NCBI GenBank assembly: GCA_965232005.1
Contig: OZ246950.1
Coordinates: 4,294,311 to 4,326,310, forward strand
Origin: Longimicrobiales bacterium
Lineage (GTDB): Bacteria; Gemmatimonadota; Gemmatimonadetes; Longimicrobiales; Gaopeijiaceae
DNA: 32,000 nt
Reading direction: 5' to 3'
Both the position numbers and the translations under genes were made by a program. Below the pieces are notes generated by a model, which was not told where the DNA came from, did not search any database, and saw only the letters and a program-made list of their open reading frames with translations. This document shows positions 7,654 to 28,976 of the stretch, piece after piece. Every line of letters begins with the position of its first letter. The first letter of the stretch is position 1.

Positions 7654-7833
7654 ATATTGTCGTTATCGACCGCGCAACCCAGCCCCACCCCATCCGCCGG
7701 CAGGCCGCCGTGCTCCTCGTCGAGGGCAGCTTGCACATGGTGCGTAACCCCAGCCCGTTGAGTATTCTACGAGGGTGTGCGCCGTAGTGTCCTGAAAACA
7801 CGAATCCGTTCAGACCGAGGCTGACCCGGTACG

Positions 7834-11067: not shown

Positions 11068-11111
11068 CCGTTTCGCGGGACAGCTCTTCGGGAAACGTCA
11101 TCTTGCTTTTT

Positions 11112-12179: not shown

Positions 12180-12320
12180 TCCGGGATTCCTTTCAAAGCC
12201 GCGCCCCGTGGGCCAACGGCTCCTGCCGTTGTGGGGCCCGGTTACAATGGTCCTTCAAATCAAGCTCGGGTGTTTCGGCCCGGCGTGTACACAAACTAAG
12301 CGCGTTTCGCAGCATTGGCA

Positions 12321-12722
12321 CTAACCCGCCCATATCGCCACATCCCGAGCAGCTGTCAGAATCGACCGGTCGACCGTGGCAAGCGGGACACCCAACTCCC
12401 GCGCCAGCACCACGAACTCGGCGTCGGCCGCGGTTATGCCGCACTCGAGCGCGGCATCGAGCGCGCGGTCGGACGACACGGTCACGATCCTCGGGCCCAG
12501 CACCCTGGCCGCGTCGTCGCACATGGCCCTGGCCTGATCGAGGATCAGCGATCCCTGGTACACGAGACCGAGCAACACGTTCCTGAGTTCGCTGAGCAGG
12601 ACGGGGGGCGCGGCCCACTCCGGGTCTCGCAGCAGAAGCCGCGCCGCGCCATCTCCGTCGGGACCGCCGACGACGAGCCGCAGCATCGCGCTGGTGTCGG
12701 CGACGATCACGGCCGCCAGCAC
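12321..12722 (-). CDS. vapC: PIN-domain ribonuclease toxin (VapC-like)
   Basis: 133 aa, GTG start. The VIVADTSAM start carries the first PIN acidic residue. Later come SELRNVL and ITAADAEFVVLARELGVPLATVD. It lies downstream of an RHH antitoxin gene on the same strand. Confidence 0.85.
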   Translation of the reverse strand: MLAAVIVADTSAMLRLVVGGPDGDGAARLLLRDPEWAAPPVLLSELRNVLLGLVYQGSLILDQARAMCDDAARVLGPRIVTVSSDRALDAALECGITAADAEFVVLARELGVPLATVDRSILTAARDVAIWAG

Positions 12723-12759
12723 CTGGCCGTGCCGTTTCGACGGCCCCCTCCACGGGTCG

Positions 12760-13035
12760 TCACTCGCCGCCCCGCCATTGGCGCCGCGCTTCCTCGCCGG
12801 GCTTTTCGGTGCGAAGACGCCGCAACGCGACCTCGTCCAGGTCGAGGGGACCCAGCGTCCGGTGGCGGCGGCCGATGCGATCGAGCAGCCCGACGGCGTC
12901 GACCGGCTCCGGGCGGAGCGAGGCGGCCAGCCGGGCCAGAATCTCCCCGTTGAGGCTGCGGTGGTTTCTCTTCGCCGCCGCCTTGAGCTCGCGATGCAGG
13001 GAATCTGGGACCCCCCGCAGGGCTACGTCGGCCAT
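12760..13035 (-). CDS. vapB: Ribbon-helix-helix (Arc/FitA-like) antitoxin (VapB-like)
   Basis: 91 aa. MADVALRGVPDSLHRELKAAAKRNHRSLNGEILARL is a typical RHH N-terminus. AGGAGG sits immediately upstream of the ATG. Confidence 0.75.
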   Translation of the reverse strand: MADVALRGVPDSLHRELKAAAKRNHRSLNGEILARLAASLRPEPVDAVGLLDRIGRRHRTLGPLDLDEVALRRLRTEKPGEEARRQWRGGE

Positions 13036-13120
13036 CCTCCTACCTCTGCCGTGTGGGTGCTGGCACGCCCGGGGACGGGAGCGCGTCTGTAGATGGCGGC
13101 ACGCTCGGGGACGACGGCGC

Positions 13121-13165
13121 TCCTATAGATGATAGCATAGTCATATCATAATAGTATCATTCTCT
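13121..13165. promoter_or_regulatory. AT-rich island with ATGATA/TATCAT repeats in the divergent vapB / lipoprotein intergenic region
   Basis: tcctatagATGATAgcatagtcaTATCATaatagTATCATtc. There is an inverted repeat ATGATA (13129-13134) / TATCAT (13144-13149) and a direct TATCAT at 13155-13160. It is the only AT-rich patch between the divergent starts at 13035 and 13274. I cannot say which gene it serves. Confidence 0.35.
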
Positions 13166-13273
13166 TGCCCGTGTCACCAGTGCATACCCCCGCTGAGGCC
13201 AGTGGATCCGGTTGCGCGCCCGCAGTTCGCTCGCGGGATGGACGGAGGCGGACCCGGCCCGTAGCTTCGCCGG

Positions 13274-14512
13274 ATGACGAGACGCCATTCCGGGGCGCGT
13301 GCCGCCTTGGCCCGGTACTGCATGTCGGTCGCGCTCTGGGCATTCCTTCAGGCCTGCGCCCCGCCCGACGATGGTCCGCCGACTTCGGTCGTGCGCGACA
13401 GCGCGGGCATCTCGATCGTCGAGTCGTTCCGACCCGCCTGGGAGGATCCCGCGTGGGCGGACTCGGCCACGTGGCGGATCGATCCCGAGCCCCTCCTCGA
13501 CCTCGCCCGCTCCGGCACGGGCGACGCTCACACCTTCTACTCCGTCCGCGGCATGAAGCGGCTCTCCGGCGGCTCCCTCGTCATCCTCAACGCGGGCTCC
13601 GATGAGATCAGGCAGTTCTCGTCCGACGGGCGGTTTCTGGGCTCGTTCGGCGGAGCCGGCGAGGGGCCCGGGGAATTCACCAACCCCCGGCAACTGGAAT
13701 TGGCCGGCGACACGATCCTGGTGCTCGACTGGGATTCCATGCTGAGCATATTCGGTCCCGGCCCGGAGTTCATTCGCGACGTGCGCCTGCACCCGCGCAC
13801 CCGCGCCGTTCACAGCCTCGGAGGCGGCGGCCTCGTCGTGCGCGCCATCACCTCGCTTCCGCCGATCGGCGGTCTGGTCCGCATCCCCGAGGCTCTGCTC
13901 ACGTACCGGCTGGACGGAAGCGGCGGCGACAGCATCGGCTGGACCAAGGGGTACGAGGACTACACTCTCGGCGACATGGGCCAGGTACCCTTTTTCATGA
14001 AGGATGCCGTCGTGGACAGCCGCGGCGAACGGATCTTCACCGGATCTTCCGACCTGATGCAGGTGGAGGAGATGACGGCAAGCGGCGACACGGTAAGGAT
14101 TCTGCGCATACCGGAGTATCCCCTGGCGCTGACGGCCGCGCAGGCCGCGGCCGAGCGGGACAACCGGCTCGACATCCCCCTGCTGCAGCAGACGCCGCTG
14201 CCGCCACGAGTCCAACAGCTTCGCGAATTCATCGAGAACATGCCGCTGCCCACGACCCGGCCCGCCTACGCCGACATGATCGTGGACCCCTCGGGCGCCG
14301 TCTGGCTGCGGCCCTTCCGGGGCGACCACGAGCAGGTCGGACCGGAGTCCTGGCTGGTGCTGGATCCCGGTGGCCGCTGGCTCGGCAGCGTGGAAGTGCC
14401 CGAGGACTTCCGCGTCTGGGACATCGGCATGGACGAAGTGCTGGGCGTGTGGCGTGACGAACTGGACGTGCAGCATCCACAGGTGCTGCGCCTGCAAAGG
14501 GACAGCCAATGA
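13274..14512 (+). CDS. Lipoprotein, NHL-like / 6-bladed beta-propeller family (paralog 1)
   Basis: 412 aa. Signal plus lipobox-like WAFLQAC. Motifs such as GSFGGAGEGPGEFTNPRQLEL are typical of NHL/6-bladed propeller blades. It is collinear with the next gene over its whole length. Confidence 0.75.
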   Translation: MTRRHSGARAALARYCMSVALWAFLQACAPPDDGPPTSVVRDSAGISIVESFRPAWEDPAWADSATWRIDPEPLLDLARSGTGDAHTFYSVRGMKRLSGGSLVILNAGSDEIRQFSSDGRFLGSFGGAGEGPGEFTNPRQLELAGDTILVLDWDSMLSIFGPGPEFIRDVRLHPRTRAVHSLGGGGLVVRAITSLPPIGGLVRIPEALLTYRLDGSGGDSIGWTKGYEDYTLGDMGQVPFFMKDAVVDSRGERIFTGSSDLMQVEEMTASGDTVRILRIPEYPLALTAAQAAAERDNRLDIPLLQQTPLPPRVQQLREFIENMPLPTTRPAYADMIVDPSGAVWLRPFRGDHEQVGPESWLVLDPGGRWLGSVEVPEDFRVWDIGMDEVLGVWRDELDVQHPQVLRLQRDSQ

Positions 14513-15678
14513 AGATCGTCCTCCCGGCGCTCGCCGCGCTCCTCGCCTCCTCCTGCGCCCCCGCCGACGACGCTCCACCGCTCGCCGTCCAGCGCGACAG
14601 CGCCGGCATCGCAATCGTCGAGTCCTTCGCGCCCGCCTGGGGCGATTCGGCGCGCTGGCGGATCGGCCCGGAGCCCCTGCTCGACCTGGCGGAATCCGGC
14701 ACGGGCGACGCGCACGACTTCTACCGGGTCCGGAACGTGACGCGGCTCCCCGACGGTGGCATCGCGGTCGTGAACCGAGGCTCCGCGGAGATCCGGAAGT
14801 TCTCGGCCGACGGAAGGTTGGTCGGCTCGGTCGGAGGCTACGGCGAGGGGCCGGGCGAGTTCTCGAACGTGCAGCAGGCGGAAGTCGTCGGCGATTCCCT
14901 GCTCGTGCGGGACGTTCACCGCGTCGCGCTCTTCGGTCCCGATCTGCGGCACGTCCGCACCCTGCAACTGCACCCCGGTGTCAGGAGTATGCACTATCTG
15001 GGCAACGGCACTATGGTCGCGCCGGTGATTGTGGACTACCCCGAGGAATACGGTCTCGTGCGGGCTTCGGAAGCGCTCCTGGTGTACGATCTGGAAGGCA
15101 TGCGCCGCGACAGCATCGGCCGGACCCCAGGTTCGGAAGAGTACGTGGCCGAGGCGCTCATGGGGTCTCCCCTCTTCGGCAAGACCTCCGTGCTCGACAA
15201 CCACGGCGACAGGATCTTCCTGGGCTCTTCGGACCACATGCAGGTCGAGGAGATCGACACAAGCGGCGACACCGTTCGAATTCTCCGAATCCCCGACTAC
15301 CCGCTGGCGCTCAGCCCGGAACAGGTACAGGCAGAACGGAACCTCCGCCTCAACCCTCCGCTGCCACCGGGGGTGACGTCTCTTCCCCCACCCTTCGTCG
15401 AGGCCGTGGAGGCGATGCCGTCTCCGGAGACCCGACCGGCATACGCGGACATGCTTGTCGACCCGACCGGCGCGGTCTGGCTTCGCCCCTTCCGCGGAAG
15501 CAGCGAACAGGGCGGCCCGGAGCACTGGTTGGTGCTCGGCCCCGACGGAGCCTGGCTCGGAAACGTCGAAATGCCCGGGAACTTCGTGGTGAGGGAAATT
15601 GGTGTGGACGAGATCCTCGGGGTCTGGACCAGTGAGCTCGACGTACAGCATCCGCAGGTGTGGCGGTTGAACCGGTAG
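14509..15678 (+). CDS. Lipoprotein, NHL-like / 6-bladed beta-propeller family (paralog 2)
   Basis: 389 aa. MKIVLPALAALLASSC lipobox. GSVGGYGEGPGEFSNVQQAEV. Long identical blocks shared with paralog 1 (RDSAGI.IVESF.PAW, GPEPLLDLA.SGTGDAH, SGDTVRILRIP.YPLAL, RPAYADM.VDP.GAVWLRPFRG, ELDVQHPQV.RL). An ATGA overlap joins it to the upstream gene. Confidence 0.85.
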   Translation: MKIVLPALAALLASSCAPADDAPPLAVQRDSAGIAIVESFAPAWGDSARWRIGPEPLLDLAESGTGDAHDFYRVRNVTRLPDGGIAVVNRGSAEIRKFSADGRLVGSVGGYGEGPGEFSNVQQAEVVGDSLLVRDVHRVALFGPDLRHVRTLQLHPGVRSMHYLGNGTMVAPVIVDYPEEYGLVRASEALLVYDLEGMRRDSIGRTPGSEEYVAEALMGSPLFGKTSVLDNHGDRIFLGSSDHMQVEEIDTSGDTVRILRIPDYPLALSPEQVQAERNLRLNPPLPPGVTSLPPPFVEAVEAMPSPETRPAYADMLVDPTGAVWLRPFRGSSEQGGPEHWLVLGPDGAWLGNVEMPGNFVVREIGVDEILGVWTSELDVQHPQVWRLNR

Positions 15679-15732
15679 GGGAATTGCGCGAAAGTTGGCG
15701 GTCGTACCCATTGACTTAATCGAGGAGTTGAA

Positions 15733-15918
15733 GTGTTTGCAATCGGATTTGGTGAGGTGCTGCTGGTCTTGATCGTTCTCGGGATCTTGGCAGGCACAGG
15801 CTATTCGGTCTATCGGCTTGCCGGTGGCGGTCGAGCACGCGAACTGGAGGCAGCCAAGCGGGACTTCGAGCGCGAGATCGAAAAGACGAACCGCAGGGAG
15901 CGGCTGCCGAGGGGGTAG
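15733..15918 (+). CDS. Small single-pass membrane protein (paralog A), unknown function
   Basis: 61 aa, GTG start. FAIGFGEVLLVLIVLGILAGTGY TM segment followed by a charged helix, RARELEAAKRDFEREIEKTNRRER. The main support is that it aligns end to end with the next small ORF. Confidence 0.5.
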   Translation: MFAIGFGEVLLVLIVLGILAGTGYSVYRLAGGGRARELEAAKRDFEREIEKTNRRERLPRG

Positions 15919-16083
15919 TGGCCTGCTGCTCGCAGAGGGAATCCGGACCGCTGCCGGCGCACCAGCGACGCCGCCGCGTACTACCCGAAGCACCCGGGAT
16001 CCACGGGTGCGGCACTTGAGCTCCGGTGAGGTGTAACTCCTGTACCCATTCGGGATGAAGACCCTGAAGCACGAGTACGGGAA

Positions 16084-16284
16084 ATGACTTTTCATATTGA
16101 CACCGGTGATGTTCTGATGTTTCTGGCGAGCCTCGCGCTCGTGGTCGCAGGAGTCTGGCTGAGTATCCGATTCGTCAGTCGGTCCGTCAGCAGGGGCGGC
16201 GTGCGGGAACTCGAGGCGGCGAAGAGGGCACTCGAATTCGAGATCGTCCGCGTTAGACAACGCGAGGAGCCACCCGGCGGGTAG
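16084..16284 (+). CDS. Small single-pass membrane protein (paralog B), unknown function
   Basis: 66 aa. TGDVLMFLASLALVVAGVWLSI TM segment followed by GGVRELEAAKRALEFEIVRVRQREE. It shares the RELEAAKR..E.EI motif and overall architecture with 15733-15918. Confidence 0.5.
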   Translation: MTFHIDTGDVLMFLASLALVVAGVWLSIRFVSRSVSRGGVRELEAAKRALEFEIVRVRQREEPPGG

Positions 16285-16360
16285 TCGTGCGGTGGGGAGC
16301 GCTGTGACCGTACCTTGTCGCAGCGAATCGTAATCACCACGGGCCCGAGGCCACCACCGG

Positions 16361-19114
16361 ATGAAATCTCCCCCCTCCCCCCGCCCCGCCGCCCGCCCTA
16401 CGCCGGCGCTGGCCCGACACTCGCTCTCGGCGACCATCTTCGCGCTTGTCCACCTCCCCTCCCCGGCGCTGGCCCGACTCTCGCTCGCGGCCACCATCCT
16501 CGCGCTCCTCCACCTCCCCACCCCCACCGTAGCCCAGCGCCTCCCCGACCCCTCGCCCGGCGACCTCGCCACGCTCTCCGTCCCGCGCTTCGAGATCGCG
16601 CCGTCGCCCATCGAGCTGACCGGTCCCGTGCGACCGGGCGAGTACCTCGGCGTCACCGGACCGCGCGCGGCATGGCTGGGGGTCGAGACCGGCGAGGCGG
16701 AGCTGTGGGTGCATCCGCTCAAGGTGGGCAGCGGCTTCCGGCTCTCGTTTTCGACGCCTGGCTACGGCTCGCCCATTCCCGGCGACCGGATCGCGCGCAC
16801 GGTGCACGTCCGGCCCGAGATCACCACGATCACGTACAGCCACGCGGCCTTCCAGGTGCGCCAGCACATTCTTGCGCCCCGCGACACGGCCGCGTCCGGT
16901 CTCCTCGTTCTGCTCGAGGTCGACAGCCCGGATCCGATGGAGATCGTCGTCGAGTTCCACCCGGTCCTCAACTACATGTGGCCGGGTTCGCTGGGCGGGC
17001 AGTATGCGTACTGGGACGGGGAGCGGCGCGTCTTCGTGCTCTCCGAGAGCCTGCAGACGCGCAATGCGGTGGTGGGCTCGCCGTGGGCGACGAACTCGGT
17101 CGAGCATCCGGCGCATCAGCTCGGCGAGGCGCCGCGCACGATGGTGATTCCGGTCGACCCGGAGCGCGCGCGCGGCGAGTTCATTCCGATCGCGGTGGCG
17201 GCGGGAACCGTCCCGCGCGACACTGTTTTCGCCCGCTATGCGCGGCTGATTTCGGGCGCCGGCATGCTCTATCGGGACACCCGGGCATGGGCTGATTCGG
17301 TGCTGGCCACCACGGCCTCCGTCGAGACACCCGACCCCCAGCTCGACGTGGCCCTGGAGTGGGCGAAGATCAACCTCGAGGAGCAGCGCGTCTGCAACCC
17401 GGACCTGGGGTGCGGGTTCGTGGCCGGCTGGGGTCTGTCGGGCGCCGGCGGGCGGCCCGGCTTCGGCTGGTTTTTCGGCGGCGACGCGATGATCAACACC
17501 TATGCCATGGACGCGCTCGGGCAGTGGGAGCTGGTGGCCGAGGAGCTCGCATTCCTCGCGGGCTACCAGCGCGACGACGGCAAGATCACGCACGAGATCT
17601 CGCAGGCGGCCGCGCATATCGACTGGTTCGACACCTATCCCTACGCCTACTACCACGCCGACACGACCCCCCACTGGATGTCCGCGTTGCACCACTACTG
17701 GCGCGCGAGCGGCGACGACGACCTGGTGCGCGAGCTGTGGCCGGCCTACCGGCGCGCGTGGGCGTGGTGCCTGAGCGCCGAGACCGACGGCGACGGGATC
17801 ATCGAGAACACGGTGGGCGGGCTCGGCGCTGTCGAGGTCGGCGGGCTCGGCGAGGCGCTCCACCAGGACATCTACCTGGCCGGCGTCTGGGTGGCGGCGA
17901 TCGAGGGCACGCTGGCCATGGCGGAGGAGATGGGCGACGGCGAGCTTGCCGCCCAGGCCCGCGAGATCGCCCCCATCGCCCGCGCGACCCTCAACGACGA
18001 CTACTGGCGGCCGGACGAAGGGCATCACGCGTTCGGGATCCTCGCCGGCGGCGGCACCAACGACAACCTGACCGTGTGGCCGGCCACCGCCGCCGCCTTC
18101 GGCCTGCTCGACGACGCCCGCGCCCGCTCCACCCTGACCCTCATGGCCGGCGACCGCGTGTCGTCGGATTGGGGCGCCCACATGCTCTCGACGGACAGCG
18201 ACCTCTACGACCCGCTCCAGTACAACATGGGGACCGTTTGGCCCTTCGTGACCGGATTCGCGTCGTGGGCGCAGTACCGCTACCGCCGCCCCTGGGCCGG
18301 ATTCCACCTCATGGACGCGGTCAAGCAGATGACCTTCGACTGGAGCCTCGGCCGCCACGGCGAGCTCTTCTCGGGCAGTTTCTACCAGCCCCTCGACCAG
18401 ACCGTCCCGCACCAGTTCTTCGCCACCTCGATGCTCGTCACCCCCCTGCTCCGCGGCGTCTTCGGGTGGGATCCGGACGCGCCGAACAGCCGCGCGCGCC
18501 TGGCGCCGCAGCTGCCGCCGGACTGGCCGCGGGCGGCGGTGCGGGGGCTGCGTGTGGGCGATACCATGCTCGATGTGGTGATCGAGCAGCAGTGGACGAC
18601 GACCGGCGGGCAGCAACGTGTGGAGATCACCAGCCGGGGCCCGGCGGTCGAGATCGACTTGGTGCCGGATGTGGCCTTGGGCGCGACCGGCGTGACCGTC
18701 AGCCAGGCCGGCAGGGGCGGCGCGATCATGCCCCCGGGCGCGCTCGCCGACCGGACTCGTGGCCAAGTCCCGCCCCTCCGCGTCGCGCTGAGCACCGGCG
18801 AACCCGCCGAGATCGCCGTGACCTGGAACGGAGGCCTCGCGGTCGCCCCTCCCCGCATCGATTTGAAGCCCGGCCAGCGGAGCGCCGGGCTGCGGGTGCT
18901 GAATCTCGAGGTGGACGGCGACGGGTGGCTGCTCGACCTGGAGGGCACGGCGGGGCGCGAGTACGGAGTCGGGCTCTTCGGCCCGCCAGTGGACTTTGCG
19001 GCAACCGACCGCGGGGCGACGGTGTCGATGCGGTCGGACGGCACCCTCCGGGTCCGGTTCGCCGAAGGCGAGGGCCGCGCAACCGTGTCGATCCGCCTGA
19101 CGCCGAGCGGGTGA
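16361..19114 (+). CDS. Secreted (alpha/alpha)6 six-hairpin glycosidase, amylo-alpha-1,6-glucosidase (GDE_C)-like
   Basis: 917 aa. The central region GFVAGWGLSG...GWFFGGDAMINTYAMDALGQWELVAEELAFLAGYQRDDGKITHEIS...YYHADTTPHWMSALHHYWRASGDDDLVRELWPAYRRAWAW matches the GDE_C/six-hairpin pattern as I remember it. The N-terminus is Pro/Ala-rich and signal-like. Confidence 0.75.
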   Translation: MKSPPSPRPAARPTPALARHSLSATIFALVHLPSPALARLSLAATILALLHLPTPTVAQRLPDPSPGDLATLSVPRFEIAPSPIELTGPVRPGEYLGVTGPRAAWLGVETGEAELWVHPLKVGSGFRLSFSTPGYGSPIPGDRIARTVHVRPEITTITYSHAAFQVRQHILAPRDTAASGLLVLLEVDSPDPMEIVVEFHPVLNYMWPGSLGGQYAYWDGERRVFVLSESLQTRNAVVGSPWATNSVEHPAHQLGEAPRTMVIPVDPERARGEFIPIAVAAGTVPRDTVFARYARLISGAGMLYRDTRAWADSVLATTASVETPDPQLDVALEWAKINLEEQRVCNPDLGCGFVAGWGLSGAGGRPGFGWFFGGDAMINTYAMDALGQWELVAEELAFLAGYQRDDGKITHEISQAAAHIDWFDTYPYAYYHADTTPHWMSALHHYWRASGDDDLVRELWPAYRRAWAWCLSAETDGDGIIENTVGGLGAVEVGGLGEALHQDIYLAGVWVAAIEGTLAMAEEMGDGELAAQAREIAPIARATLNDDYWRPDEGHHAFGILAGGGTNDNLTVWPATAAAFGLLDDARARSTLTLMAGDRVSSDWGAHMLSTDSDLYDPLQYNMGTVWPFVTGFASWAQYRYRRPWAGFHLMDAVKQMTFDWSLGRHGELFSGSFYQPLDQTVPHQFFATSMLVTPLLRGVFGWDPDAPNSRARLAPQLPPDWPRAAVRGLRVGDTMLDVVIEQQWTTTGGQQRVEITSRGPAVEIDLVPDVALGATGVTVSQAGRGGAIMPPGALADRTRGQVPPLRVALSTGEPAEIAVTWNGGLAVAPPRIDLKPGQRSAGLRVLNLEVDGDGWLLDLEGTAGREYGVGLFGPPVDFAATDRGATVSMRSDGTLRVRFAEGEGRATVSIRLTPSG
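16405..16524 (+). repeat. In-frame 60-bp tandem duplication (2 copies, 53/60 identical) within the N-terminal signal-like region of the glycosidase gene
   Basis: Copy 1 (16405-16464) and copy 2 (16465-16524) differ at 7 positions by hand alignment. They encode ALARHSLSATIFALVHLPSP / ALARLSLAATILALLHLPTP. Confidence 0.9.
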
Positions 19115-19281
19115 GGCGAGCTGGCTCGGTCGCTCGGTTGCGGCGTTCTTTCTGTCACGGCTATTCTTGTGATGGTTGTTGCGGTGCAATACACACCCTG
19201 CGTCTGCGTCTGATGCGCTCGCGGCGCCGTTCCGGCACGCGTGCCGCGTAGTGTATCTCGGCTGCGGAGAGACGAGAACCG

Positions 19282-21333
19282 ATGACTGACACGGCGAAAA
19301 CGGCGGAGACGGCGGAGAGTTCGACGGCTGAATCCCTGAGCCTGGTTGACGAACTCATCCTGATGCTTCTCGACGAGAAGGGCGGCTACTTCCACCAGGT
19401 ACCCGGCTGGCAACTGAACTGCGCCATCGTCGGCGGAGTGCTGGCGGAACTCTCCTTCCGGTCGCGGCTCGACTCGGACTTGACATCCCTGTTCGTCGTG
19501 GACCCGGCCGAAACGGGCGATCCCGTCCTGGACCCCATCCTGAGGGAAATCGTGGACGCACCGGACCAACGCACTGCCCGGTACTGGATCGAACGGCTCG
19601 CCTCCCGTGCGGAGTCGGTCATCGATGTTACTCTGGCGCGCCTGGTTGAACGGGATATCCTCCAACACCACGAAGGCGAATTCTGGACACTGTCTCCCAC
19701 CGTCCTGCATGGGCAACAGTACGGGATGTCTGCGGAAGGCACGCCCGACCAGTTCATCAAGGCGCGCATCGGCAAGTTTCTCTTCACCGACGAGATTCCC
19801 GACCCCAGAGACGTCGTCATCGTGTGCCTCGTCAATACGTGCGACGTCTTTCGCCTGATTTTTGAACTCGATGAGAAGGCGGAGCAGCGCATCAAGTACA
19901 TCTGCCAGATGGACTTGATCGGCCGGTCCATTGCCGATGCAGTTTCTCGGAACTTGGTCGGCCCGATTCGTAGACATTCCGCTCTTTCCAAGAAGATTCC
20001 GACGGTTCCGCTGCGGAAGCTGCTGGCCAATCCCCATATCCGAGACGGCAACCTGAACGCCTTGTTCGGGCACCTCGCGGAGGAGTACGGCCCGGTGTTC
20101 CGTGTCCGCCCTCCCTTCTCGGAGCCCATGACCTTCCTGGCCGGACTCGAGACGAACCGCTGGGTGCACAAGCAGGGGCGAGCGTACCTGAGAACCAGGG
20201 ACTACTTCAGCGACTTCGAGAAGGTGTACGGTGCGACCGGCGTCCTCCCCGCCCTGGACGGCGCCGATCACTTCCGGCTTCGCAAGTTCCTGGCGCCGGC
20301 CTATTCCCAGGCGAGGCTGGCAGGGCAGATGGATCAGCTCTACACCAAGGGCCGCGCGTACATGGCGGGCTTGAAGGTTGGGGACTCCTACCGCGCCACG
20401 TCCATGAGCCGGGCGCTGGTCAACGCCCAGCTTTCACCGCTGTTCATCGGCGTCGATACGCAAGATCTCATGGACGACCTGATGGTGTACAAGGAACGGG
20501 CCCTCAGCGTGCATATCGCCCAACTCCTGCCCAAGTTCACGCTGAATACCCCGGGCATGAAACGCCGGGCGAGAGTCCTCGACACATTGATGGAACGGGT
20601 GTTGCAAGTCAACACGCCCGGCCAACGGGCGGACGGCCCGCGGAACCTGGTGGACGATTATCTCAGCCTGCACGCGAGCGACCCGCAGTTTCTCCCGGAG
20701 TCCAACCTGCTCTTCTCTTTTTCCGCAGCCTTGATTGCCAGCGTATACCTCGGCGATACGTTCAGCCTCATGGTCTACGCCATGGCGTCTCAGCCGGACC
20801 TGTACGCCAGGATCCAATCCGAAGCGGATGCCCTGTTCGCCAACGGCGACCCCGGGAAGGAGAACTTCACCCCCGCCAACATCGACGTGACGCACCGCTT
20901 CCTCATGGAGTGCCTGCGCATGTACCCGATCGTGACCATGTCGGTTCGCAACGTGATGAATACCTGCGTGGTCGAGAACCACGAGCTGCCCCTGGGGGAA
21001 CGGATCCACATCGCCATGACCGCCACGCATTACATGAGCGACGTCTTTCCCGAACCCCACAAGTTCGACATCGACCGCTTCCTGCCGTCGCGCAAGAAGT
21101 ATGACAGCCTCGGGTTCGCCCCGTACGGGCTGGGCACGCACAGGTGTCTCGGTACCCGGTGGATGGAGTTGCACCTGGCGGTCAACCTGCTGATGCTGGC
21201 GCATCACTTCACGATTGAGGTGTCGCCGGCGAAGTACGTGCGGAAGCTCCAATTCAATCCGTTTCCGTCGATGAAGCCCAGCAAGAAGCTGAAATTCCGC
21301 ATCCTGGAGCAGCGGCGCGAGTTGCCCGCTTGA
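19282..21333 (+). CDS. Fusion protein: N-terminal GPP34/GOLPH3-family domain + C-terminal cytochrome P450
   Basis: 683 aa. The N-terminal ~230 aa are LSLVDELILMLLDEKGGYF...AIVGGVLAELSF...ETGDPVLDPILREI...IPDPRDVVIVCLVNTCDVF, a GPP34-like pattern. The C-terminal ~430 aa carry the P450 ExxR (ECLRMYP) and the heme-thiolate loop FAPYGLGTHRCLGTRW (Cys codon 21145-21147, in frame). Confidence 0.85.
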   Translation: MTDTAKTAETAESSTAESLSLVDELILMLLDEKGGYFHQVPGWQLNCAIVGGVLAELSFRSRLDSDLTSLFVVDPAETGDPVLDPILREIVDAPDQRTARYWIERLASRAESVIDVTLARLVERDILQHHEGEFWTLSPTVLHGQQYGMSAEGTPDQFIKARIGKFLFTDEIPDPRDVVIVCLVNTCDVFRLIFELDEKAEQRIKYICQMDLIGRSIADAVSRNLVGPIRRHSALSKKIPTVPLRKLLANPHIRDGNLNALFGHLAEEYGPVFRVRPPFSEPMTFLAGLETNRWVHKQGRAYLRTRDYFSDFEKVYGATGVLPALDGADHFRLRKFLAPAYSQARLAGQMDQLYTKGRAYMAGLKVGDSYRATSMSRALVNAQLSPLFIGVDTQDLMDDLMVYKERALSVHIAQLLPKFTLNTPGMKRRARVLDTLMERVLQVNTPGQRADGPRNLVDDYLSLHASDPQFLPESNLLFSFSAALIASVYLGDTFSLMVYAMASQPDLYARIQSEADALFANGDPGKENFTPANIDVTHRFLMECLRMYPIVTMSVRNVMNTCVVENHELPLGERIHIAMTATHYMSDVFPEPHKFDIDRFLPSRKKYDSLGFAPYGLGTHRCLGTRWMELHLAVNLLMLAHHFTIEVSPAKYVRKLQFNPFPSMKPSKKLKFRILEQRRELPA

Positions 21334-22379
21334 GGCGCCACCAGATCCGGGTGGGCGAACTGTCGAAAGCGCTGAGGGATGCGTACCGCGGATCGGGCGT
21401 CGCGCGTCGCGTGCGCCACTTCAACAGCTGGGTCGACCGGGCGGTGCCGGACGCCGGAGGCGGGGGCGGCTACGACCACGCGGAAACGGTCAGGGAATAC
21501 TACGCGCTTTGCAACGGCTTCATGGTGTGGGGTTGGGGTGAATCCCTGCATTTCGCGCCCCTTACGCCTCATGAAAGTCTGGAGGAGTCCAAGGTCCGGC
21601 ACCAGCGCGCGATGATCGCCGAGCTGGAGTTGGAACAGGGCATGACGGTGGTCGACGTTGGTTGCGGGGTCGGTGGCCCCATGCGCCGCGTCGTCCGCGA
21701 GACCGGCAGCAGGGTCGTGGGTATCAACATCAATGAGGTCCAGCTGGCGCAAGCGAAGAAGTTGAACGCCGAGGCGGGGCTCGATCACCTGGTGGACCTG
21801 AAACGGTGCAGCTTCATGGACATGAGCGCCATCGAGGACAACACCTTCGACCGGGGTTACGCCATAGAGTCGACGTGCCATGCGCAGGACAAGCAACGCG
21901 CCTTCGCGGAGATATTCCGCGTGCTGAAACCGGGTGCCCTGTTCTGGGGTCAGGAAATGTGTCTTACGGACCGGTTCGATCCGAACGACGGTCGGCACCG
22001 TGCCGTCAAGCAGGATCTCATGCGCGGTATCGCGCTGCACGACATCGCCACGTTCGGAGAAGTGAATCACGCGCTCGAAGCCGCGGGATTTCAAGTCATT
22101 GAAGGAAGGGACTGGGACGTCCAGGAGGGACCCTCCACGCCTTGGTATCAACCCATGGAAAGTCGCCACGGGACGTTGGGGAACGCCTTGATAAGGCTTC
22201 CGTGGGGCCGCAAGGCGATCATCGCAGGATCGAAGCTGGCCGAGCTGCTGCGGCTCTTTCCGAATGGCTCGGCGGAAGTCGTTCGGCTCCTCGATCGGAC
22301 CGCGGAGGCGTATGTCGCGGGCGGCAAGACGGGTATCTTCACGCCGCTGTACTGTTTTCTGGCACGTAAACCCGTTTAG
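21330..22379 (+). CDS. Sterol C-24 methyltransferase (ERG6/SMT)-like SAM-dependent methyltransferase
   Basis: ~349 aa. YYALCNGFMVWGWGESLHFAP (family region I, cf. Y-E-Y-GWG-x-S-FHF). SAM motif VVDVGCGVGGP. NTFDRGYAIESTCHA, FRVLKPGALF, and the C-terminal AYVAGGKTGIFTPLYCFLARKP (sterol-MT C-terminal domain pattern). By eye it is collinear with yeast ERG6 as I recall it. Candidate TTG start at 21330 overlaps the P450 stop (21331-21333); an alternative GTG lies at 21351. Confidence 0.88.
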   Translation: MRRHQIRVGELSKALRDAYRGSGVARRVRHFNSWVDRAVPDAGGGGGYDHAETVREYYALCNGFMVWGWGESLHFAPLTPHESLEESKVRHQRAMIAELELEQGMTVVDVGCGVGGPMRRVVRETGSRVVGININEVQLAQAKKLNAEAGLDHLVDLKRCSFMDMSAIEDNTFDRGYAIESTCHAQDKQRAFAEIFRVLKPGALFWGQEMCLTDRFDPNDGRHRAVKQDLMRGIALHDIATFGEVNHALEAAGFQVIEGRDWDVQEGPSTPWYQPMESRHGTLGNALIRLPWGRKAIIAGSKLAELLRLFPNGSAEVVRLLDRTAEAYVAGGKTGIFTPLYCFLARKPV

Positions 22380-22421
22380 GTCCGAAAACAACGCTCATCG
22401 CCCGGTCATGAGGTCTGCCCC

Positions 22422-24506
22422 ATGCACGTAGGCGCCCTCGAAGCACGCAACTGGGCCGGCCTGGTCTTCACCGATGGCCCTGACGACGGAATCGCGGTGC
22501 GCCTCGCCTTCACCACCCCGGCAGGCGATCGTCGCCATCACGGCGACTGGTACTGGATGGTCTCGCGCGTCGGCACGCACGCGCCGGACGGCTCCTACGC
22601 ACGCGTCGAGTTCGACCTGGACGCCGAGCCGTCGCCATCGTCTGCCCCGGCGGCGGGCACCCTGATCCTGGAGTGGTCACGCCGCGCGGATGCCGTCGCA
22701 CTCAGCGCCACCGTGACGGCGCCCGGCCGTCTGGAGCTGGTCGGGGATGCACCGTGGGGATGGAGCGCGCGCTGGGTCGAGGTGGTGGGGGATGAGAGGG
22801 CGGAGATGGCGGGCGAGGCCGGAGATCCCGGCGCGGACGGCTGGCGGGCCGCGCTCGAAACGAGGGAGATTGCGGCCGTGTTCTCGGCGGGGACGGGGAC
22901 GGGCGACGATGTCCACCCCGCGCGCACCCTCGATGTCGCCCCGGGGGCCACCGGGCGCGTGGCCATGGTAGCCGCGTGGGGCGGAGACCCGCTCGCCCGG
23001 GCCCACAAGCTCCTCCCCGACGCGGACACCTGGATCGAAGAGGCGCGGACGGGTGTGGCCCGCCGCGGGCTCCGCGCGACCACCCGGCCGGGCCAGGGCG
23101 CGGCCGGCTCCGCCAAGGCGCGGCCTTCGCTGGCGGGTCCGCCGCACGCCACCCATTCCGAACTGCTCGAGAGCATCGCCGACAACCTGATGTGGACCGT
23201 CCTCCTCCAGCCTGAAACCGGCAGGCTCTACACCCCTGCCGGCCGCCGCTGGATCTTCCCGAGACCCACCGGGAGACACCGGGCACCGAAGCCGCGCGAT
23301 CCCGGTTCCGGCCCCGGCACCCAGTCGGGTTCCGCCGCGACCTCGGACCTGTCGCCGCACCTTCCCGAGCCCGATGACTGGACCATCTTCGGATGGGACA
23401 CCTTCTTCAACGCCCTCCTGCTCGCGAACGTCTCGGGCGAGCTGGCCTGGTCGACCCTCCTCGCCGGCGTCGAAGCGCGCTACCCGAACGGCAACATTCC
23501 CAACTGGCGGAGCCGCCGGGGCGGCACCCCCGACCGCTCCCAGCCCCCCGTCGGCTCCTTCGCGGCGTTGAAGCTGCACCGCATCCATCCCGACCACGCT
23601 TCCCTGGCCGCCGCCTGGCCCGGGCTCCTTGCCTGGTCCGACTGGTGGGTCGCCGACAAGAATGGGCGGCCGCGCCGTGAAGGCCTCACTCCGGGCCTGC
23701 TCTCGTGGGGATCGGACACGGCGCTGGTGCCGGGCCCCGAGCAGGTCCCGGAGTGGGAAGTCGGCGCGAGCGGCCACCAGCGCGCGGCCTGGGAGTCGGG
23801 CCAGGACGACCTCCCGCTTTGGGACGAGGCCGAGTGGGATGCCGAGCGGGAAGTCCTCGCCATGTCTGCGGTGGATCTGTGCAGCTACCGCGCGCTCGAC
23901 CTCGAGTGCCTGGCGCGCATCGCGCGCATCCTGGGGGACGGGCCGGCCGCGCGGCGCCTGGACGCCAGTCGGCAGCGCCTCGCCGAGACGATGAACCGGA
24001 CCCTCTGGTCCGAGGCCGCCGGCCTCTACCTCGACGAACTGCCCTCGGGACGGTCGCCGCGCGTGGCAGCGTCGCACTTCCTCCCCCTGCTCGCGGGCAT
24101 TCCTTCACAGCAGCGTGCCCGGCGCATGGTCGACGTGCTGCGCGACCCGGCCCGGTTCTGGGGCGACTGGGTGCTTCCCACGATCTCGCGCGACGATCCC
24201 GCGTTCGGCGACCAGCAGTACTGGCGCGGCTCGATCTGGCCGCCGATGAACTACCTCGTTCTGCAGGGTTTGCGGCGGTACGGATTCGACGACCTCGCGG
24301 CGGAGCTCGCGTGGAAGGGGGCCGACATGTTTCTGGCGGACCGGCGCCGCACGGGGTTCTGCCGCGAGAACTTCGATGCGCGCACGGGGCGCGGGCAGGG
24401 GCGGCGGTTTCAGAGTTGGGGGCCGCTGTTTGCGCTGGGGGGTCTGGAGGAGTTGGGCATCGACGCCGGAGCAGGCGGACTGGCGGCTCGGCCCCGGACT
24501 GTCTAG
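22422..24506 (+). CDS. (alpha/alpha)6 glycoside hydrolase, GH63 / MGH1 / trehalase-like
   Basis: 694 aa. DDWTIFGWDTFFNALLLANVSGELAWSTLLAGVEARYPNGNIPNW...SQPPVGSFAALKL and the C-terminal QQYWRGSIWPPMNYLVLQGLRRYG are patterns I associate with GH63-like/MGH-like hydrolases. It starts 42 nt after the methyltransferase gene on the same strand. Confidence 0.7.
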   Translation: MHVGALEARNWAGLVFTDGPDDGIAVRLAFTTPAGDRRHHGDWYWMVSRVGTHAPDGSYARVEFDLDAEPSPSSAPAAGTLILEWSRRADAVALSATVTAPGRLELVGDAPWGWSARWVEVVGDERAEMAGEAGDPGADGWRAALETREIAAVFSAGTGTGDDVHPARTLDVAPGATGRVAMVAAWGGDPLARAHKLLPDADTWIEEARTGVARRGLRATTRPGQGAAGSAKARPSLAGPPHATHSELLESIADNLMWTVLLQPETGRLYTPAGRRWIFPRPTGRHRAPKPRDPGSGPGTQSGSAATSDLSPHLPEPDDWTIFGWDTFFNALLLANVSGELAWSTLLAGVEARYPNGNIPNWRSRRGGTPDRSQPPVGSFAALKLHRIHPDHASLAAAWPGLLAWSDWWVADKNGRPRREGLTPGLLSWGSDTALVPGPEQVPEWEVGASGHQRAAWESGQDDLPLWDEAEWDAEREVLAMSAVDLCSYRALDLECLARIARILGDGPAARRLDASRQRLAETMNRTLWSEAAGLYLDELPSGRSPRVAASHFLPLLAGIPSQQRARRMVDVLRDPARFWGDWVLPTISRDDPAFGDQQYWRGSIWPPMNYLVLQGLRRYGFDDLAAELAWKGADMFLADRRRTGFCRENFDARTGRGQGRRFQSWGPLFALGGLEELGIDAGAGGLAARPRTV

Positions 24507-25196: not shown

Positions 25197-26396
25197 TTAC
25201 CCCAACACCCCCACCAGCGCCTCCACCACCTCGTCGATGTGCTCCTCGGTGATCACCAGCGGCGGCAGCAGCCGGATGACCGTGGTGCCCGCCGGCAGCG
25301 TGAGCACGCCGGCGTCCGCGAGGGCGTCGATGTAGGGCCGGCAGCGCTCCTTCAGCTCGACGCCGATCATGAGGCCCAGTTGGCGCAAGGCGCGCACTCG
25401 CGCGGGAAGTCTCGGCTCGAATCGCTCCCGGAATCGTGCGCCCAGCCGTTCGGCGCGCGCCGCCAGTCCCTCTTCTTCCATGAACCGGATCGCGGCGAGC
25501 CCGGCCGCGCAGACGAGGGGGTTGCCGCCGAAGGTGGTGCCGTGTTTGCCGGGCGGCAGTTGGATGCCGTCGTTGGCAAGAACGGCACCCATGGGCACGC
25601 CTCCGGCGATCGCCTTGGCCAGGCAGAGCATGTCCGGGACGACTCCGTGGTGCTCGCAGGCGAACATTCTGCCGGTGCGGCAGAAGCCCGTCTGGATCTC
25701 GTCGAACACGAGCAGCGCGCCTGCGTCGTCGCACGCTTCGCGAGCCGCTTGCAGGAACTCGGCGGTGGCTGGCCGGACGCCTCCCTCGCCCTGCACCGGC
25801 TCGATGACGACGGCCGCGGTGTCCGGGCCTACGGCCTCGCGCAGCTTGGCGGGATTGTTGAACGGCACGAACGAGAAGCCCGGCACAAGCGGCTCGAAGG
25901 CTTCGCGGTACTGCTTCTTGTGGGTCGCGCTTAGGGCGCCGAGGGTGCGGCCGTGGAACCCGCGCATGGCGGAGACGACACCGGAGCGCCCGGTGGTCAG
26001 CCGCGCGAACTTGATCGCGGCCTCGATCGTCTCGGCTCCCGAGTTGCAGAAGAACCCGCGTGACAGCCCGGGCGGCGCGATCCCGGCGAGCTTCTCCAGC
26101 AGCCGGGCGCGCGCATCGTTGTAGAAGATGCCCGGACAGGCCACCAGCGTGCGCGCCTGCTCGGCCAGCGCCTCGGCCACGGCCTCGTTGGCGTGCCCGA
26201 TGTTCGCGACTCCGATCCCGGCCACGCAGTCGATGTAGCGGCGGCCCCCATCGTCCCAGACCACGGCTCCGCTGCCCTTCACCAGGGTGATGTCGCGCTT
26301 CGGAAATACCTCGAGCGCGTAACGGCGCTCGGTACGGTGTATCGGTCCGGCGTCCTGGGCGGTTCGGGCCCCGTGGGAGGGCTTCGGCATGGTCAT
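25197..26396 (-). CDS. lysJ: Class III PLP aminotransferase, [LysW]-aminoadipate semialdehyde / acetylornithine aminotransferase (LysJ/ArgD)
   Basis: 399 aa from the ATG at 26396 (MTMPKPSH...), whose ATGA overlaps the lysZ stop. Motifs [70 protein letters not shown] (PLP-lysine context). The longer 481-aa form is rejected. Confidence 0.9.
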
Positions 26397-27184
26397 GCGA
26401 TGACGGTGCCCTTTCCGGCCAGGGCATCCGAGATCGGGGTCTCGGTGCGCCCGTCGGCGATCAGCACCTTGGTCACTCCGGGCCGGACCATCCTGCAGAT
26501 CGACTTCATCTTCCGCATCATGCGGCTGCTTATCTGGTCTTCCCAGCGGGTCACCTGGTGCGGCGCGACGTGGTCGACCACCGTCGAGGGATCGTCCGGG
26601 TCCTCCAGCAACCCCGGCGCCTCGATCAGCTGGATCACCCAACTCGGGCGCAGCGCATGGGCGAGGAGGGTCACGATGTCGTCGTTCTCCGAGTTGATGG
26701 CGACGTTGCGCTCATCGATGACCGGGACGGTGATGACGGGGACGTACTCGTTCTCCAGGAGCAGCCCTAGCAGCTTGCGGTTCACTGCAACCGGCTTACC
26801 CGAGAGGTCGCGAATTATCCGCTTCTTGACCCCCTCTTGAACCCGGATGCCCTTGTTTCGCATTCCGCGCACCATTGCCCCGTCCAGCCCGGTCAGCCCG
26901 ATGGCGTTGACCCCGCTCTGTTGCAGCATTTCGACGAGGCGCTTGTTGCGCAGCCCCGCGTAGGCCATGAGCATCACGTCGACCATTTCCGTGTCCGAAT
27001 ACACGCTGGTGACCCCGGATACGGAAGTCAGAATGCGCTTCTCCACCCCGAGGCGCTCGGCCAGGGAGTCGCGCAGCGCGTTGGCCCCATGCACGATTAC
27101 GATCTGGTCTTCGAGTGCCTTGATGTCGCGCGCGACGCCGGCAAGGTTGATCGCCGCGCCTCCTCCAATCTTGATCAGCAGCAA
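26393..27184 (-). CDS. lysZ: Amino-acid kinase family, [LysW]-aminoadipate / acetylglutamate kinase (LysZ/ArgB)
   Basis: 263 aa. MLLIKIGGGAAINL...IVIVHGANALRD... fits the AAK fold pattern. It lies in the lysW cluster. Confidence 0.9.
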   Translation of the reverse strand: MLLIKIGGGAAINLAGVARDIKALEDQIVIVHGANALRDSLAERLGVEKRILTSVSGVTSVYSDTEMVDVMLMAYAGLRNKRLVEMLQQSGVNAIGLTGLDGAMVRGMRNKGIRVQEGVKKRIIRDLSGKPVAVNRKLLGLLLENEYVPVITVPVIDERNVAINSENDDIVTLLAHALRPSWVIQLIEAPGLLEDPDDPSTVVDHVAPHQVTRWEDQISSRMMRKMKSICRMVRPGVTKVLIADGRTETPISDALAGKGTVIA

Positions 27185-27223
27185 TGTTGGTGCCTCCCCA
27201 TTTCCGGCTGTGCGCCGGCTGTG

Positions 27224-27880
27224 TCAAAGAACGCCCGTCGACCCGTTTTCGACGGGAGTCCAGTCAATGCGCCCCATTGTGTCCGGGTAGGGTTTGGAAC
27301 AAAGGATGCGCGCGCCGTCAAAGTGTGCTGCATGCATCTGAAAGTAGCCGGGGTTCTCGCGGAAGCGGGAGGCGAAATGGACCCGGCACGCGGTGTCGGC
27401 AACGATGAGATTCATCGCGCGCATGTACCGCGTCCGCCGCTCGATCGCGTCGAGCCCTCGCTTCAGCGCATCTGCGAAATCCCCCCGGTCAAAGCGCTTC
27501 ACAAAGTTGAACACCTTCTCGGCCCCGATCCGCCCGCTCTCCTTGATGCGCACGCCGTGGAGTTCGCCGTTGAAGGCGAAGACGCGCTCACCATCGAAGA
27601 ACGGCATGTTGTTCTCCACACGGATCCCCTCGTCGCGAAACGCACTTCGGGCGTGGGCCAGAAGCAGCGTCGCGCGGCCGGTTGGTCTGGCTGTGTCGTC
27701 CCAGATCGGCGAAATATCGTGATGGAACCGCCATCCATACTGTTCGCTACCTTCCAGCCACGCGCAACCCCAGCCGTGTCCCTGGTATTCCCGGCTGTCG
27801 CGCGAGATGCGGGCGAGAGCCGCCAGGTGCTCCTCGATCTCGAAGCCCTCGGCACTGCGCACGCAGAGGAGGCGGCACAT
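27224..27880 (-). CDS. Stand-alone class II (Ntn) glutamine amidotransferase-like protein (YafJ/EgtC-like)
   Basis: 218 aa. The N-terminal Met-Cys (MCRLL) fits an Ntn nucleophile. LLLAHARSAF...VENNMPFF and FAFNGELHG are class II GATase patterns. There is no fused synthase domain. Confidence 0.75.
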   Translation of the reverse strand: MCRLLCVRSAEGFEIEEHLAALARISRDSREYQGHGWGCAWLEGSEQYGWRFHHDISPIWDDTARPTGRATLLLAHARSAFRDEGIRVENNMPFFDGERVFAFNGELHGVRIKESGRIGAEKVFNFVKRFDRGDFADALKRGLDAIERRTRYMRAMNLIVADTACRVHFASRFRENPGYFQMHAAHFDGARILCSKPYPDTMGRIDWTPVENGSTGVL

Positions 27881-27898
27881 GTCCCCGCGCCCCCGCGA

Positions 27899-28927: not shown

Positions 28928-28976
28928 CGGGCGACCCCTGTGGCGGCGCGCGCCCCGTTCGACCGGGCCGGCGGGC

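Follow-up and report, generated by a model that had tools for sequence, protein, structure and literature searches.

Proteins of ∼670 amino acids that combine an N-terminal GPP34 domain with a C-terminal cytochrome P450 (cytP450) domain are known as GPP34_L (Microbiome 2025, PMC11706023). In that study, 656 GPP34_L proteins were found, only in sponge symbionts, and 92.6% of the sponge-associated Gemmatimonadota genomes carried them. GPP34 proteins were proposed to be secreted effectors that bind phosphatidylinositol 4-phosphate (PI4P) and block phagosome maturation; sterols and methyltransferases are not mentioned, and flanking genes were analyzed for the short form only. Sponge symbionts of the same phyla are also known for horizontally transferred sterol clusters with functional sterol methyltransferases (SMTs) (PMC9531527, PMC10070321). 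Here, we compare both systems with a 32,000-nucleotide stretch from a Longimicrobiales bacterium (Gemmatimonadota; contig OZ246950.1, positions 4,294,311 to 4,326,310; “the window”), which encodes a GPP34–P450 fusion at positions 19282–21333 of the plus strand. The fusion is probably a cytoplasmic, membrane-peripheral heme-thiolate enzyme that tailors a sterol or a close cyclic triterpenoid and belongs to a mobile modification and export module.

An intact gene for a widespread two-domain protein

The fusion gene encodes 683 amino acids in one unbroken open reading frame (ORF) with an ATG start. The motif GGAGAG sits 10 nucleotides ahead of the ATG, and a promoter scan of the region upstream of the gene found nothing. 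All peptides quoted in an initial annotation of this DNA were found in this ORF, and hidden Markov models confirm the two domains that it had named. The GPP34 (GOLPH3/Vps74-like) domain (19342–19944, residues 21–221) matches Pfam family PF05719 with an E value of 4.8e-29 (102 bits against a cutoff of 29; profile positions 1–198 of 201), and the P450 domain (20032–21330, residues ∼251–683) matches PF00067 with an E value of 2.5e-34 (119 bits, cutoff 22.8). The linker between them, SRNLVGPIRRHSALSKKIPTVPLRKLLAN (19945–20031, residues 222–250), has low AlphaFold2 confidence only at residues 226–233, and its proline P240 is invariant or nearly so across divergent fusions. The AlphaFold2 model of the whole fusion reaches a predicted local distance difference test (pLDDT) score of 84.4 and a predicted template modeling score (pTM) of 0.80, the latter suggesting that GPP34 packs on the P450 in a fixed arrangement.

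Neither a stop codon nor a frameshift separates the two halves, as had been stated before, and the same holds for 76 full-length orthologs from 80 loci, many of which come from chromosome-level long-read metagenome-assembled genomes (MAGs). Because the same intact ORF recurs in these 76 separately assembled loci, an assembly or frameshift artifact was ruled out. The gene also has the composition of a real gene, with a GC content of 0.83 at third (GC3) and 0.40 at second (GC2) codon positions in a genome of 65% GC. No signal peptide or transmembrane segment was found in the fusion; the highest hydropathy over 19 residues is 1.9 and lies in a core helix of GPP34.

Among 5.8 billion proteins searched, more than 120 full-length proteins with both domains show 68–92% identity; they are annotated just as “cytochrome P450.” Relatives occur in 329 genomes of a scan with one genome per species, and a profile search retrieved more than 2,000 full-length relatives. 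Both Pfam domains are present in every match listed except the truncated P0098. Exhaustive representative and profile searches added further fusions of ∼660–690 residues at 25–44% identity, indicating an old and diversified architecture. The GPP34–P450 architecture is thus already known and abundant, and the data do not support the view of the fusion as a novelty, as it is both common and published. The window protein, which belongs to a group of close relatives that we call clade A, is a member of GPP34_L with the same architecture, hosts, and phyla, and only the functional reading given here differs.

Counts of neighboring genes refer to the best 80 loci of the 329-genome scan, all of which encode full-length proteins with at least 65% identity. 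These loci span at least six phyla, including Gemmatimonadota (Longimicrobiales and Candidatus Palauibacter), Latescibacterota, Nitrospirales, Chloroflexota/Dehalococcoidia, Opitutales, and others. The window protein is 83–95% identical to Candidatus Palauibacter and Longimicrobiales proteins and 92–95% identical to full-length proteins of Gemmatimonadota MAGs. Judging from their isolate codes, we take the closest loci to be from sponge and coral MAGs (Ircinia, Rhopaloeides, Coscinoderma, Aplysina, and Porites). High identity across phyla points to horizontal transfer. Two records titled Rhodothermales (L002) and Vicinamibacteria (L004) hold fusions that are 88–92% identical to the Gemmatimonadota protein, and reflect either very recent transfer between phyla or mislabeled MAGs.

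The fusion gene is linked to sterol genes

The stop codon of the fusion gene overlaps by 4 nucleotides (TTGA) with the TTG start of a translationally coupled gene for a divergent SMT paralog (21330–22379, plus strand; 349 amino acids). This protein matches the Pfam families Methyltransf_11 (E = 8e-19) and Sterol_MT_C (E = 2.4e-15; 56.8 bits against a cutoff of 21.7). By tblastn, an SMT of the window type is present in 67 of the 80 loci and lies at most 300 bp from the fusion in 64, on the same strand in 35 cases and on the opposite strand in 29. The adjacency of fusion and SMT therefore survives rearrangement. In five of the 13 loci without the SMT, the contig stops just past the fusion.

Region I of the window SMT reads FMVWGWG, with glutamate replaced by valine in respect to the motif YE(Y/F)GWG. 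SMTs that accompany clade A fusions share FMV(W/Y/F)GWG in region I together with an 8-residue insert, whereas the canonical SMTs of sterol clusters carry F(Y/F)EFGWG and are 40–42% identical to the window type. The two distinct paralogs coexist in symbiont sterol clusters (L060, 10074–12997; L040, 10147–16241). By synteny, the window type corresponds to the “2 of 2” SMTs (∼35% identity to ERG6), whereas the “1 of 2” SMT that forms the 24-isopropyl product is the other, canonical one (PMC10070321). We suspect that the “2 of 2” enzymes belong to the SMTs without activity on desmosterol.

A KshA-like Rieske non-heme iron oxygenase (11112–12179, minus strand) is encoded 7 kb upstream of the fusion. 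It comprises a Rieske domain (PF00355, E = 3.5e-16) and a KshA_C domain (PF19298, E = 4.9e-20), and its nearest solved homolog is the 3-ketosteroid 9α-hydroxylase KshA (E = 3.8e-21), from which its activity is predicted. Homologs are present in 65 of the 80 loci (tblastn). A further partner is a protein of ∼459 residues of the flavin adenine dinucleotide (FAD) amine-oxidase type, which was detected in 37 loci by ORF clustering and in 43 by tblastn (42 of the 80, plus L081). The conserved transporters differ between phyla. In Gram-negative phyla, the partner is an AcrB-type transporter of the resistance–nodulation–division (RND) family (7834–11067, plus strand, in the window; ACR_tran, E = 2.5e-161), which is encoded in 37 loci, often with HlyD and OEP partners, and directly upstream of the fusion in relatives. 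In Chloroflexota, an MMPL protein with matches to the sterol-sensing domain is found in 31 loci.

In the Nitrospirales loci L040, L046, L060, and L078, the clade A block runs on into sterol-pathway genes. These comprise a second SMT (L040 and L060), an sdmB-like 3β-hydroxysteroid dehydrogenase (3β-HSD; L040, L046, and L078), an sdmA-like Rieske protein (L040 and L046), and, in L060, a squalene epoxidase–oxidosqualene cyclase (OSC) fusion and a CYP51-like P450. The gene order equals, gene for gene, that of an Aplysina aerophoba contig (genes 9–16) and a Nitrospira MAG (2682229270-279) from PMC10070321. Window-type loci and the published clusters (PMC10070321, PMC9531527) share organisms, the order around two SMTs, squalene epoxidase–OSC, CYP51, ERG24, and sdmA/B, and, as reported for these clusters, transfer across phyla (PMC9531527). 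Annotation in both studies was confined to homologs of known sterol genes, and the GPP34–P450, KshA-like Rieske, and FAD genes beside the “2 of 2” SMTs were not discussed. In contrast to the published clusters, the Gemmatimonadota module stands apart from the core pathway, beside an RND pump. Literature searches for a link between GPP34 and sterols, or for bacterial sterol clusters of sponges with P450 and Rieske genes, yielded nothing relevant.

More distant fusions show a comparable linkage. The clade B fusion P0276 (42% identity to the window fusion) lies between a KshA-like Rieske gene and an FAD oxidase gene, followed by 3β-HSD, SdmA-like Rieske, and SMT genes, with a true CYP51 (E = 3e-73 to Methylococcus CYP51) and a squalene epoxidase–OSC fusion nearby. 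The clade C fusions share 31–34% identity with the window protein. Two of them, P0331 and P0352 (32%), overlap a gene for a squalene/oxidosqualene-type cyclase, with a sulfotransferase next, and P0273 (34%) stands ahead of two sulfotransferases and an adenosine 5′-phosphosulfate (APS) kinase. The initial annotation had proposed that the P450 acts on a lipid or sterol substrate shared with the coupled methyltransferase, and these conserved gene neighborhoods support this proposal well. Across the family, the gene context indicates that the fusion goes along with the synthesis and modification of cyclic triterpenoids.

Several of these loci have features of their own. Distant fusions with a canonical I-helix stand with a triterpene cyclase and sulfotransferases in L082, L083, and L086 (6016–11172) and in L084 (8001–12843), the last also with APS kinase; this suggests that Acidobacteriota and other symbionts make sulfated triterpenoids or sterols. 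Another distant fusion, P0282 (L085, 8001–13142), is followed by an aminoglycoside phosphotransferase (APH)/ecdysteroid-kinase-like (EcKL) kinase and a TRI12-type exporter of the major facilitator superfamily, a gene order that hints at a route of hydroxylation, phosphorylation, and export. Squalene epoxidase and OSC are joined in one protein of more than 1,100 residues in L081 (15778–18007) and L060 (13129–15345), a fusion also noted by Brown et al. 2023 (PMC10070321).

The same neighbors could be read as a catabolic set, in which a CYP125/CYP142-like P450, the KshA-like oxygenase, and a KstD-like flavoenzyme would degrade host sterols for carbon. Host tissue is rich in sterols, the closest solved homolog of the Rieske partner belongs to a steroid degradation pathway, and ChsH2-like and thiolase-like genes occur near one paralog. 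However, the partner with the tightest linkage, an SMT that depends on S-adenosylmethionine, is anabolic, and the block adjoins biosynthetic OSC, CYP51, and sdmA/B-like genes in several phyla. The conserved transporters are exporters and not uptake systems, the flavoenzyme is of the amine-oxidase/phytoene-desaturase type and not of the KstD type, and the conserved set includes no β-oxidation, HsaA–D, or KstD-type genes. We therefore regard sterol catabolism as highly improbable.

The P450 domain carries an unusual but conserved I-helix

The P450 domain assumes a microsomal/CYP51-like fold and retains the heme-binding motifs of the superfamily. The heme-thiolate loop, FAPYGLGTHRCLG (21115–21153), provides Cys622 as the ligand and contains the invariant residues G616, G618, H620, and C622. 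The K-helix ExxR motif reads ECLR (20908–20919), with E543 and R546 invariant in every alignment. Together with a PERF-like motif (FDIDRF), ECLR and the Cys-ligand sequence YGLGTHRCLG are invariant in the 76 orthologs and across clades.

In contrast, the I-helix core, AALIASVYLGDTFS (20725–20766), which lies within helix 473–502 of the AlphaFold2 model, departs from the (A/G)Gx(D/E)T pattern that is typical, although not universal, for P450s. The corresponding columns read A486-S487-V488-Y489-L490, so that Tyr489-Leu490 take the place of the acid–alcohol pair (D/E-T). The initial annotation had pointed to this deviation, and it proves to be a fixed trait: A486, S487, Y489, L490, G491, and D492 are invariant in the 76 orthologs of all phyla. 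At the same columns, clade B fusions carry AGHY(T/L), whereas the sulfotransferase-linked clade C fusions carry the canonical AGx(D/E/H)T. This pattern fits a division in which clade C enzymes act as ordinary hydroxylases that supply sulfotransferases, whereas clades A and B would catalyze another, perhaps non-standard reaction. For the window enzyme, the invariant Tyr-Leu implies that the reaction may not be a standard hydroxylation.

Taken further, the I-helix could mean that the P450 is not a monooxygenase but, within the same sterol module, an isomerase or dehydratase of the CYP74, CYP8A, or CYP5A kind acting on an oxygenated sterol (e.g. a hydroperoxide or epidioxide from the Rieske reaction), or a sterol-binding scaffold. 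P450s without the acid–alcohol pair often use peroxide or catalyze rearrangements, and the invariance of Tyr489-Leu490 in the 76 orthologs next to AGHY[T/L] in clade B and a canonical helix in clade C would be in line with this, as would the lack of a redox-partner gene conserved nearby. Nevertheless, some true monooxygenases also lack the threonine or the acid, such as EryF, and CYP51 has His-Thr. The heme-binding and ExxR motifs of the fusion are fully canonical, and nothing here points to a peroxide substrate. We consider a P450 of this kind unlikely.

The closest solved sequences are CYP725A4 (taxadiene 5α-hydroxylase), Methylococcus CYP51 (McCYP51), and CYP120, with E values of ∼1e-17 to 1e-18, whereas the clade B fusion has CYP51 as its top match (E = 5e-29). 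Foldseek aligns the model with many P450s at template modeling (TM) scores of 0.76–0.82, among them CYP184A1, P450BM3, McCYP51, and CYP3A4 at ∼0.8; this full-model search is dominated by the P450 domain and does not tell CYP184, CYP102, CYP51, and CYP3A apart. NCBIfam gave only far-sub-threshold P450 matches (ApyO and pentalenene oxygenase) and no family assignment. By sequence and fold, the domain is microsomal/CYP51-clan-like but not a CYP51. Membership in CYP51 was rejected on the basis of an E value of 7.6e-18 to McCYP51, compared with 2.7e-73 for the genuine CYP51 of a related cluster, and of the I-helix ASVYLG; the initial annotation, which had found no CYP51 signature motifs, was right in this respect.

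CYP51, including the Methylococcus CYP51–ferredoxin fusion (PDB codes 6MCW and 7SNM), is nonetheless among the nearest characterized P450s by both sequence and fold. Similar to CYP51, the window fusion has a histidine two residues before the cysteine ligand, and both occur in the same sterol clusters. In the I-helix, the clade A sequence ASVYL differs from AG(Q/H)HT, and E values of the fusions to CYP51 reach only ∼1e-17 to 5e-29. In addition, the fusions carry GPP34 instead of ferredoxin. The AGHYT helix of clade B resembles the CYP51 motif AGHHTS.

P450BM3 (CYP102) and CYP116B-type fusions to redox partners are likewise bacterial P450s with an extra domain in a single chain, and the BM3 heme domain superimposes with a TM score of ∼0.78. 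In the window protein, however, the extra domain is N-terminal and matches no redox family, so that it cannot supply electrons. A fusion to a redox partner was accordingly discarded: Pfam and NCBIfam detect only GPP34 and p450 in the protein, and no family that binds flavin mononucleotide, FAD, or an iron–sulfur cluster.

The GPP34 domain has lost most of the PI4P pocket

A family-profile alignment (hhalign) matches residues 12–213 of the fusion to residues 52–275 of human GOLPH3 with 97.4% probability. A profile was required to link the domain to GOLPH3 in this way, as a phmmer search of the PDB with the N-terminal domain gave only a marginal match (E = 0.005). The domain shares with GOLPH3/Vps74 (PDB code 3KN1) the homologous all-helical organization and a β-hairpin (strands 127–130 and 134–137 of the window model).

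The W81 equivalent of GOLPH3 is kept as W43, whereas R90 is replaced by V50 (Val, Ala, or Ile among window-type proteins), R171 by S112 or E111, and R174 by D115 or I114. The alternatives reflect an uncertainty of one position in the alignment around R171/R174, and neither register places a basic residue there. Three of the four PI4P-coordinating residues are thus non-basic in all 76 window-type proteins, and only clade C fusions retain an arginine at the R174 position. W81, R90, R171, and R174 are taken as the pocket positions and were checked against the human GOLPH3 sequence. Since the pocket is mostly lost, any lipid binding by the GPP34 domain would be unlike that of GOLPH3. Beyond the lack of the arginines that coordinate PI4P or sulfate, the window domain differs from GOLPH3/Vps74 in being bacterial, cytoplasmic, and fused to an enzyme, and there is no sign of a counterpart to the Golgi-type adaptor function.

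These substitutions bear on the published proposal, according to which a secreted GPP34 domain would bind PI4P on the sponge phagosome and block phagolysosome maturation, with the P450 as an accessory. The domain is a true GOLPH3 homolog, and the fold of the P450 resembles that of eukaryotic microsomal P450s, so that a host reductase would be usable in principle. All relatives in our scan are, as we gather from their isolate codes, host-associated MAGs, and the family was likewise reported to be limited to sponge symbionts and absent from their free-living relatives (PMC11706023). However, that study considered neither the binding residues nor the flanks of GPP34_L nor sterol genes. The exchanges of R90 for Val/Ala, R171 for Ser/Glu, and R174 for Asp/Ile throughout the 76 proteins, the lack of a signal peptide, and translational coupling to a methyltransferase argue against a secreted PI4P-binding protein. 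The same is true for the setting of the gene in metabolic clusters with OSC, CYP51, SMT, Rieske enzymes, sulfotransferases, and lipid pumps. An effector function of the fusion thus seems quite improbable.

A proposed sterol modification and export module

The proposed module consists of the GPP34–P450, a dedicated divergent SMT, a KshA-like Rieske oxygenase, usually an FAD amine-oxidase-type oxidoreductase, and a lipid exporter, which would be a tripartite RND pump in diderm phyla and the MMPL/sterol-sensing-domain protein in Chloroflexota. A sterol as the substrate, the function assigned to GPP34, and outward transport are inferred. A sterol intermediate in the cytoplasmic membrane, derived from a squalene epoxidase/OSC/CYP51 pathway of the symbiont or from the host, would be acted on by the P450, with GPP34 holding the enzyme at the membrane or feeding it the substrate. 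The methyltransferase, the Rieske oxygenase, and the flavoenzyme would modify the same scaffold, and the RND or MMPL pump would carry the product outward. The missing signal peptide and transmembrane segment, together with the 4-nucleotide overlap with the SMT gene, suggest that the fusion is cytoplasmic. A sterol as substrate is further suggested by homology, with CYP51 and sterol/terpenoid clans nearest to the P450 and KshA nearest to the Rieske partner.

As the initial annotation had suggested, the simplest plausible role of GPP34 would be to hold the P450 at the cytoplasmic membrane or to deliver its lipid substrate. As a purely functional analogy, eukaryotic microsomal P450s also have an N-terminal appendage, their membrane anchor; GPP34 would take over its job of positioning an enzyme that acts on membrane-resident lipids at the bilayer. 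In contrast to this anchor, GPP34 is a globular, putatively peripheral domain of ∼200 residues and not a transmembrane helix.

Several observations weigh against the sterol assignment. Within the 32-kb window, neither the FAD oxidoreductase nor genes for squalene formation, OSC, or CYP51 were found. No ferredoxin or reductase gene is conserved nearby, which leaves the electron supply unexplained, and a screen of small ORFs near the module for ferredoxins revealed only a PIN-domain protein. The cyclase next to clade C fusions is only 26–31% identical to OSC and may be a hopene cyclase, so that the substrates of the family may reach beyond sterols. The Tyr-Leu I-helix could reflect non-oxygenase chemistry or even a non-catalytic binding role. 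Finally, a single transferred block gave rise to all 80 clade A loci, so that they do not count as separate observations; independence rests on the rearrangements and on the few paralog loci inspected.

A more specific version of the sterol assignment would treat the cassette, with its FAD protein as a desaturase/reductase-type enzyme, as a mobile sterol-remodeling and export system, by which symbionts make the unconventional sterols of sponges or convert host sterols into them. The divergent SMT would then methylate a position or a substrate beyond the reach of canonical SMTs, and the C-26 methylation behind aplysterol and 26-methylstigmastane is a candidate. This step would take place only after the P450 or the flavoenzyme has prepared the side chain, and GPP34 would serve as a new sterol- or membrane-presenting module for a bacterial P450. 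We put this version forward tentatively and think it rather doubtful.

Mosaic ancestry of the cassette and other genes of the window

The module in the window is a mosaic. The RND gene and the fusion–SMT cassette (7811–11141 and 19093–22404) are 94–97% identical in nucleotide sequence to the relative L001 and 92–97% identical to L003. In both relatives, the RND gene itself (96.6% identity to each) abuts the fusion gene, so that RND gene and cassette are contiguous there. In contrast, the Rieske, unknown, and glycoside hydrolase genes that separate them in the window (11146–19124) are only 75–78% identical to L001/L003 but 83–87% identical to L008/L017. This mosaic of identities indicates that the fusion–SMT unit of 3.3 kb was relocated, probably exchanged by recombination.

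The intergenic region upstream of the fusion gene (19115–19281, plus strand) forms the left edge of the relocated cassette. Homology to relatives begins at 19093 or 19129, and a terminator-like hairpin at 19129–19144 closes the preceding glycoside hydrolase gene. A dip in GC content at 19–22 kb was considered as a sign of foreign origin and dismissed: it stems mainly from lower GC at first and second codon positions, i.e. from protein composition, with GC3 only slightly lower. Mobility is better supported by the mosaic identity than by this dip. The cassette is flanked by genes for GH63/MGH1-like (mannosylglycerate/glucosylglycerate hydrolase-type) glycoside hydrolases (16361–19114 and 22422–24506, plus strand), whose GC3 of 0.87–0.92 compares with 0.78–0.83 for the cassette.

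The remainder of the window holds genes of varied kinds. Two tandem duplicates without a Pfam family (13274–14512 and 14509–15678, plus strand; 412 and 389 residues) are 58% identical to each other, and L008 and L017 have a single copy where the window has this pair (13274–15678). Mobile-element and toxin genes encode a YhgA-like transposase (3446–4453, plus strand), a HipA-family kinase toxin (5940–7235, minus strand), and a PIN-domain protein (12321–12722, minus strand). A LysW/LysX-type amino acid biosynthesis cluster (25197–29813, minus strand) comprises a class III aminotransferase, an amino acid kinase, a semialdehyde dehydrogenase, and a RimK/LysX ATP-grasp protein. An unusual single ORF (30059–31972, minus strand) combines a domain of the glucosamine-6-phosphate isomerase/6-phosphogluconolactonase type with a PIG-L de-N-acetylase domain.

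Implications for symbiont sterol metabolism

The window adds no new architecture, yet the sole printed functional proposal for the family, a secreted PI4P effector, does not fit the evidence gathered here. What this analysis contributes is the conserved setting in a sterol module, an SMT paralog dedicated to the fusion, an I-helix that differs by clade, and a PI4P pocket that is lost; we found no mention of these in the searchable literature. The family appears to be characteristic of clusters that tailor sterols and triterpenoids and that sponge and coral symbionts have gained by horizontal transfer. If this holds, these proteins would be enzymes of bacterial sterol metabolism that have escaped annotation, and at least three more conserved genes would belong to the symbiont sterol clusters already in print. 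To our knowledge, the fusion would also be the first bacterial P450 joined to a domain that targets lipids or membranes instead of a redox partner.

The module would further provide concrete candidates for the makers of sponge-specific sterols. This question underlies the dispute over 24-isopropyl- and 26-methyl-steranes as the oldest animal biomarkers, and a role of the cassette in sterol remodeling, if true, would bear directly on whether the “sponge biomarker” steranes stem from animals or from bacteria.

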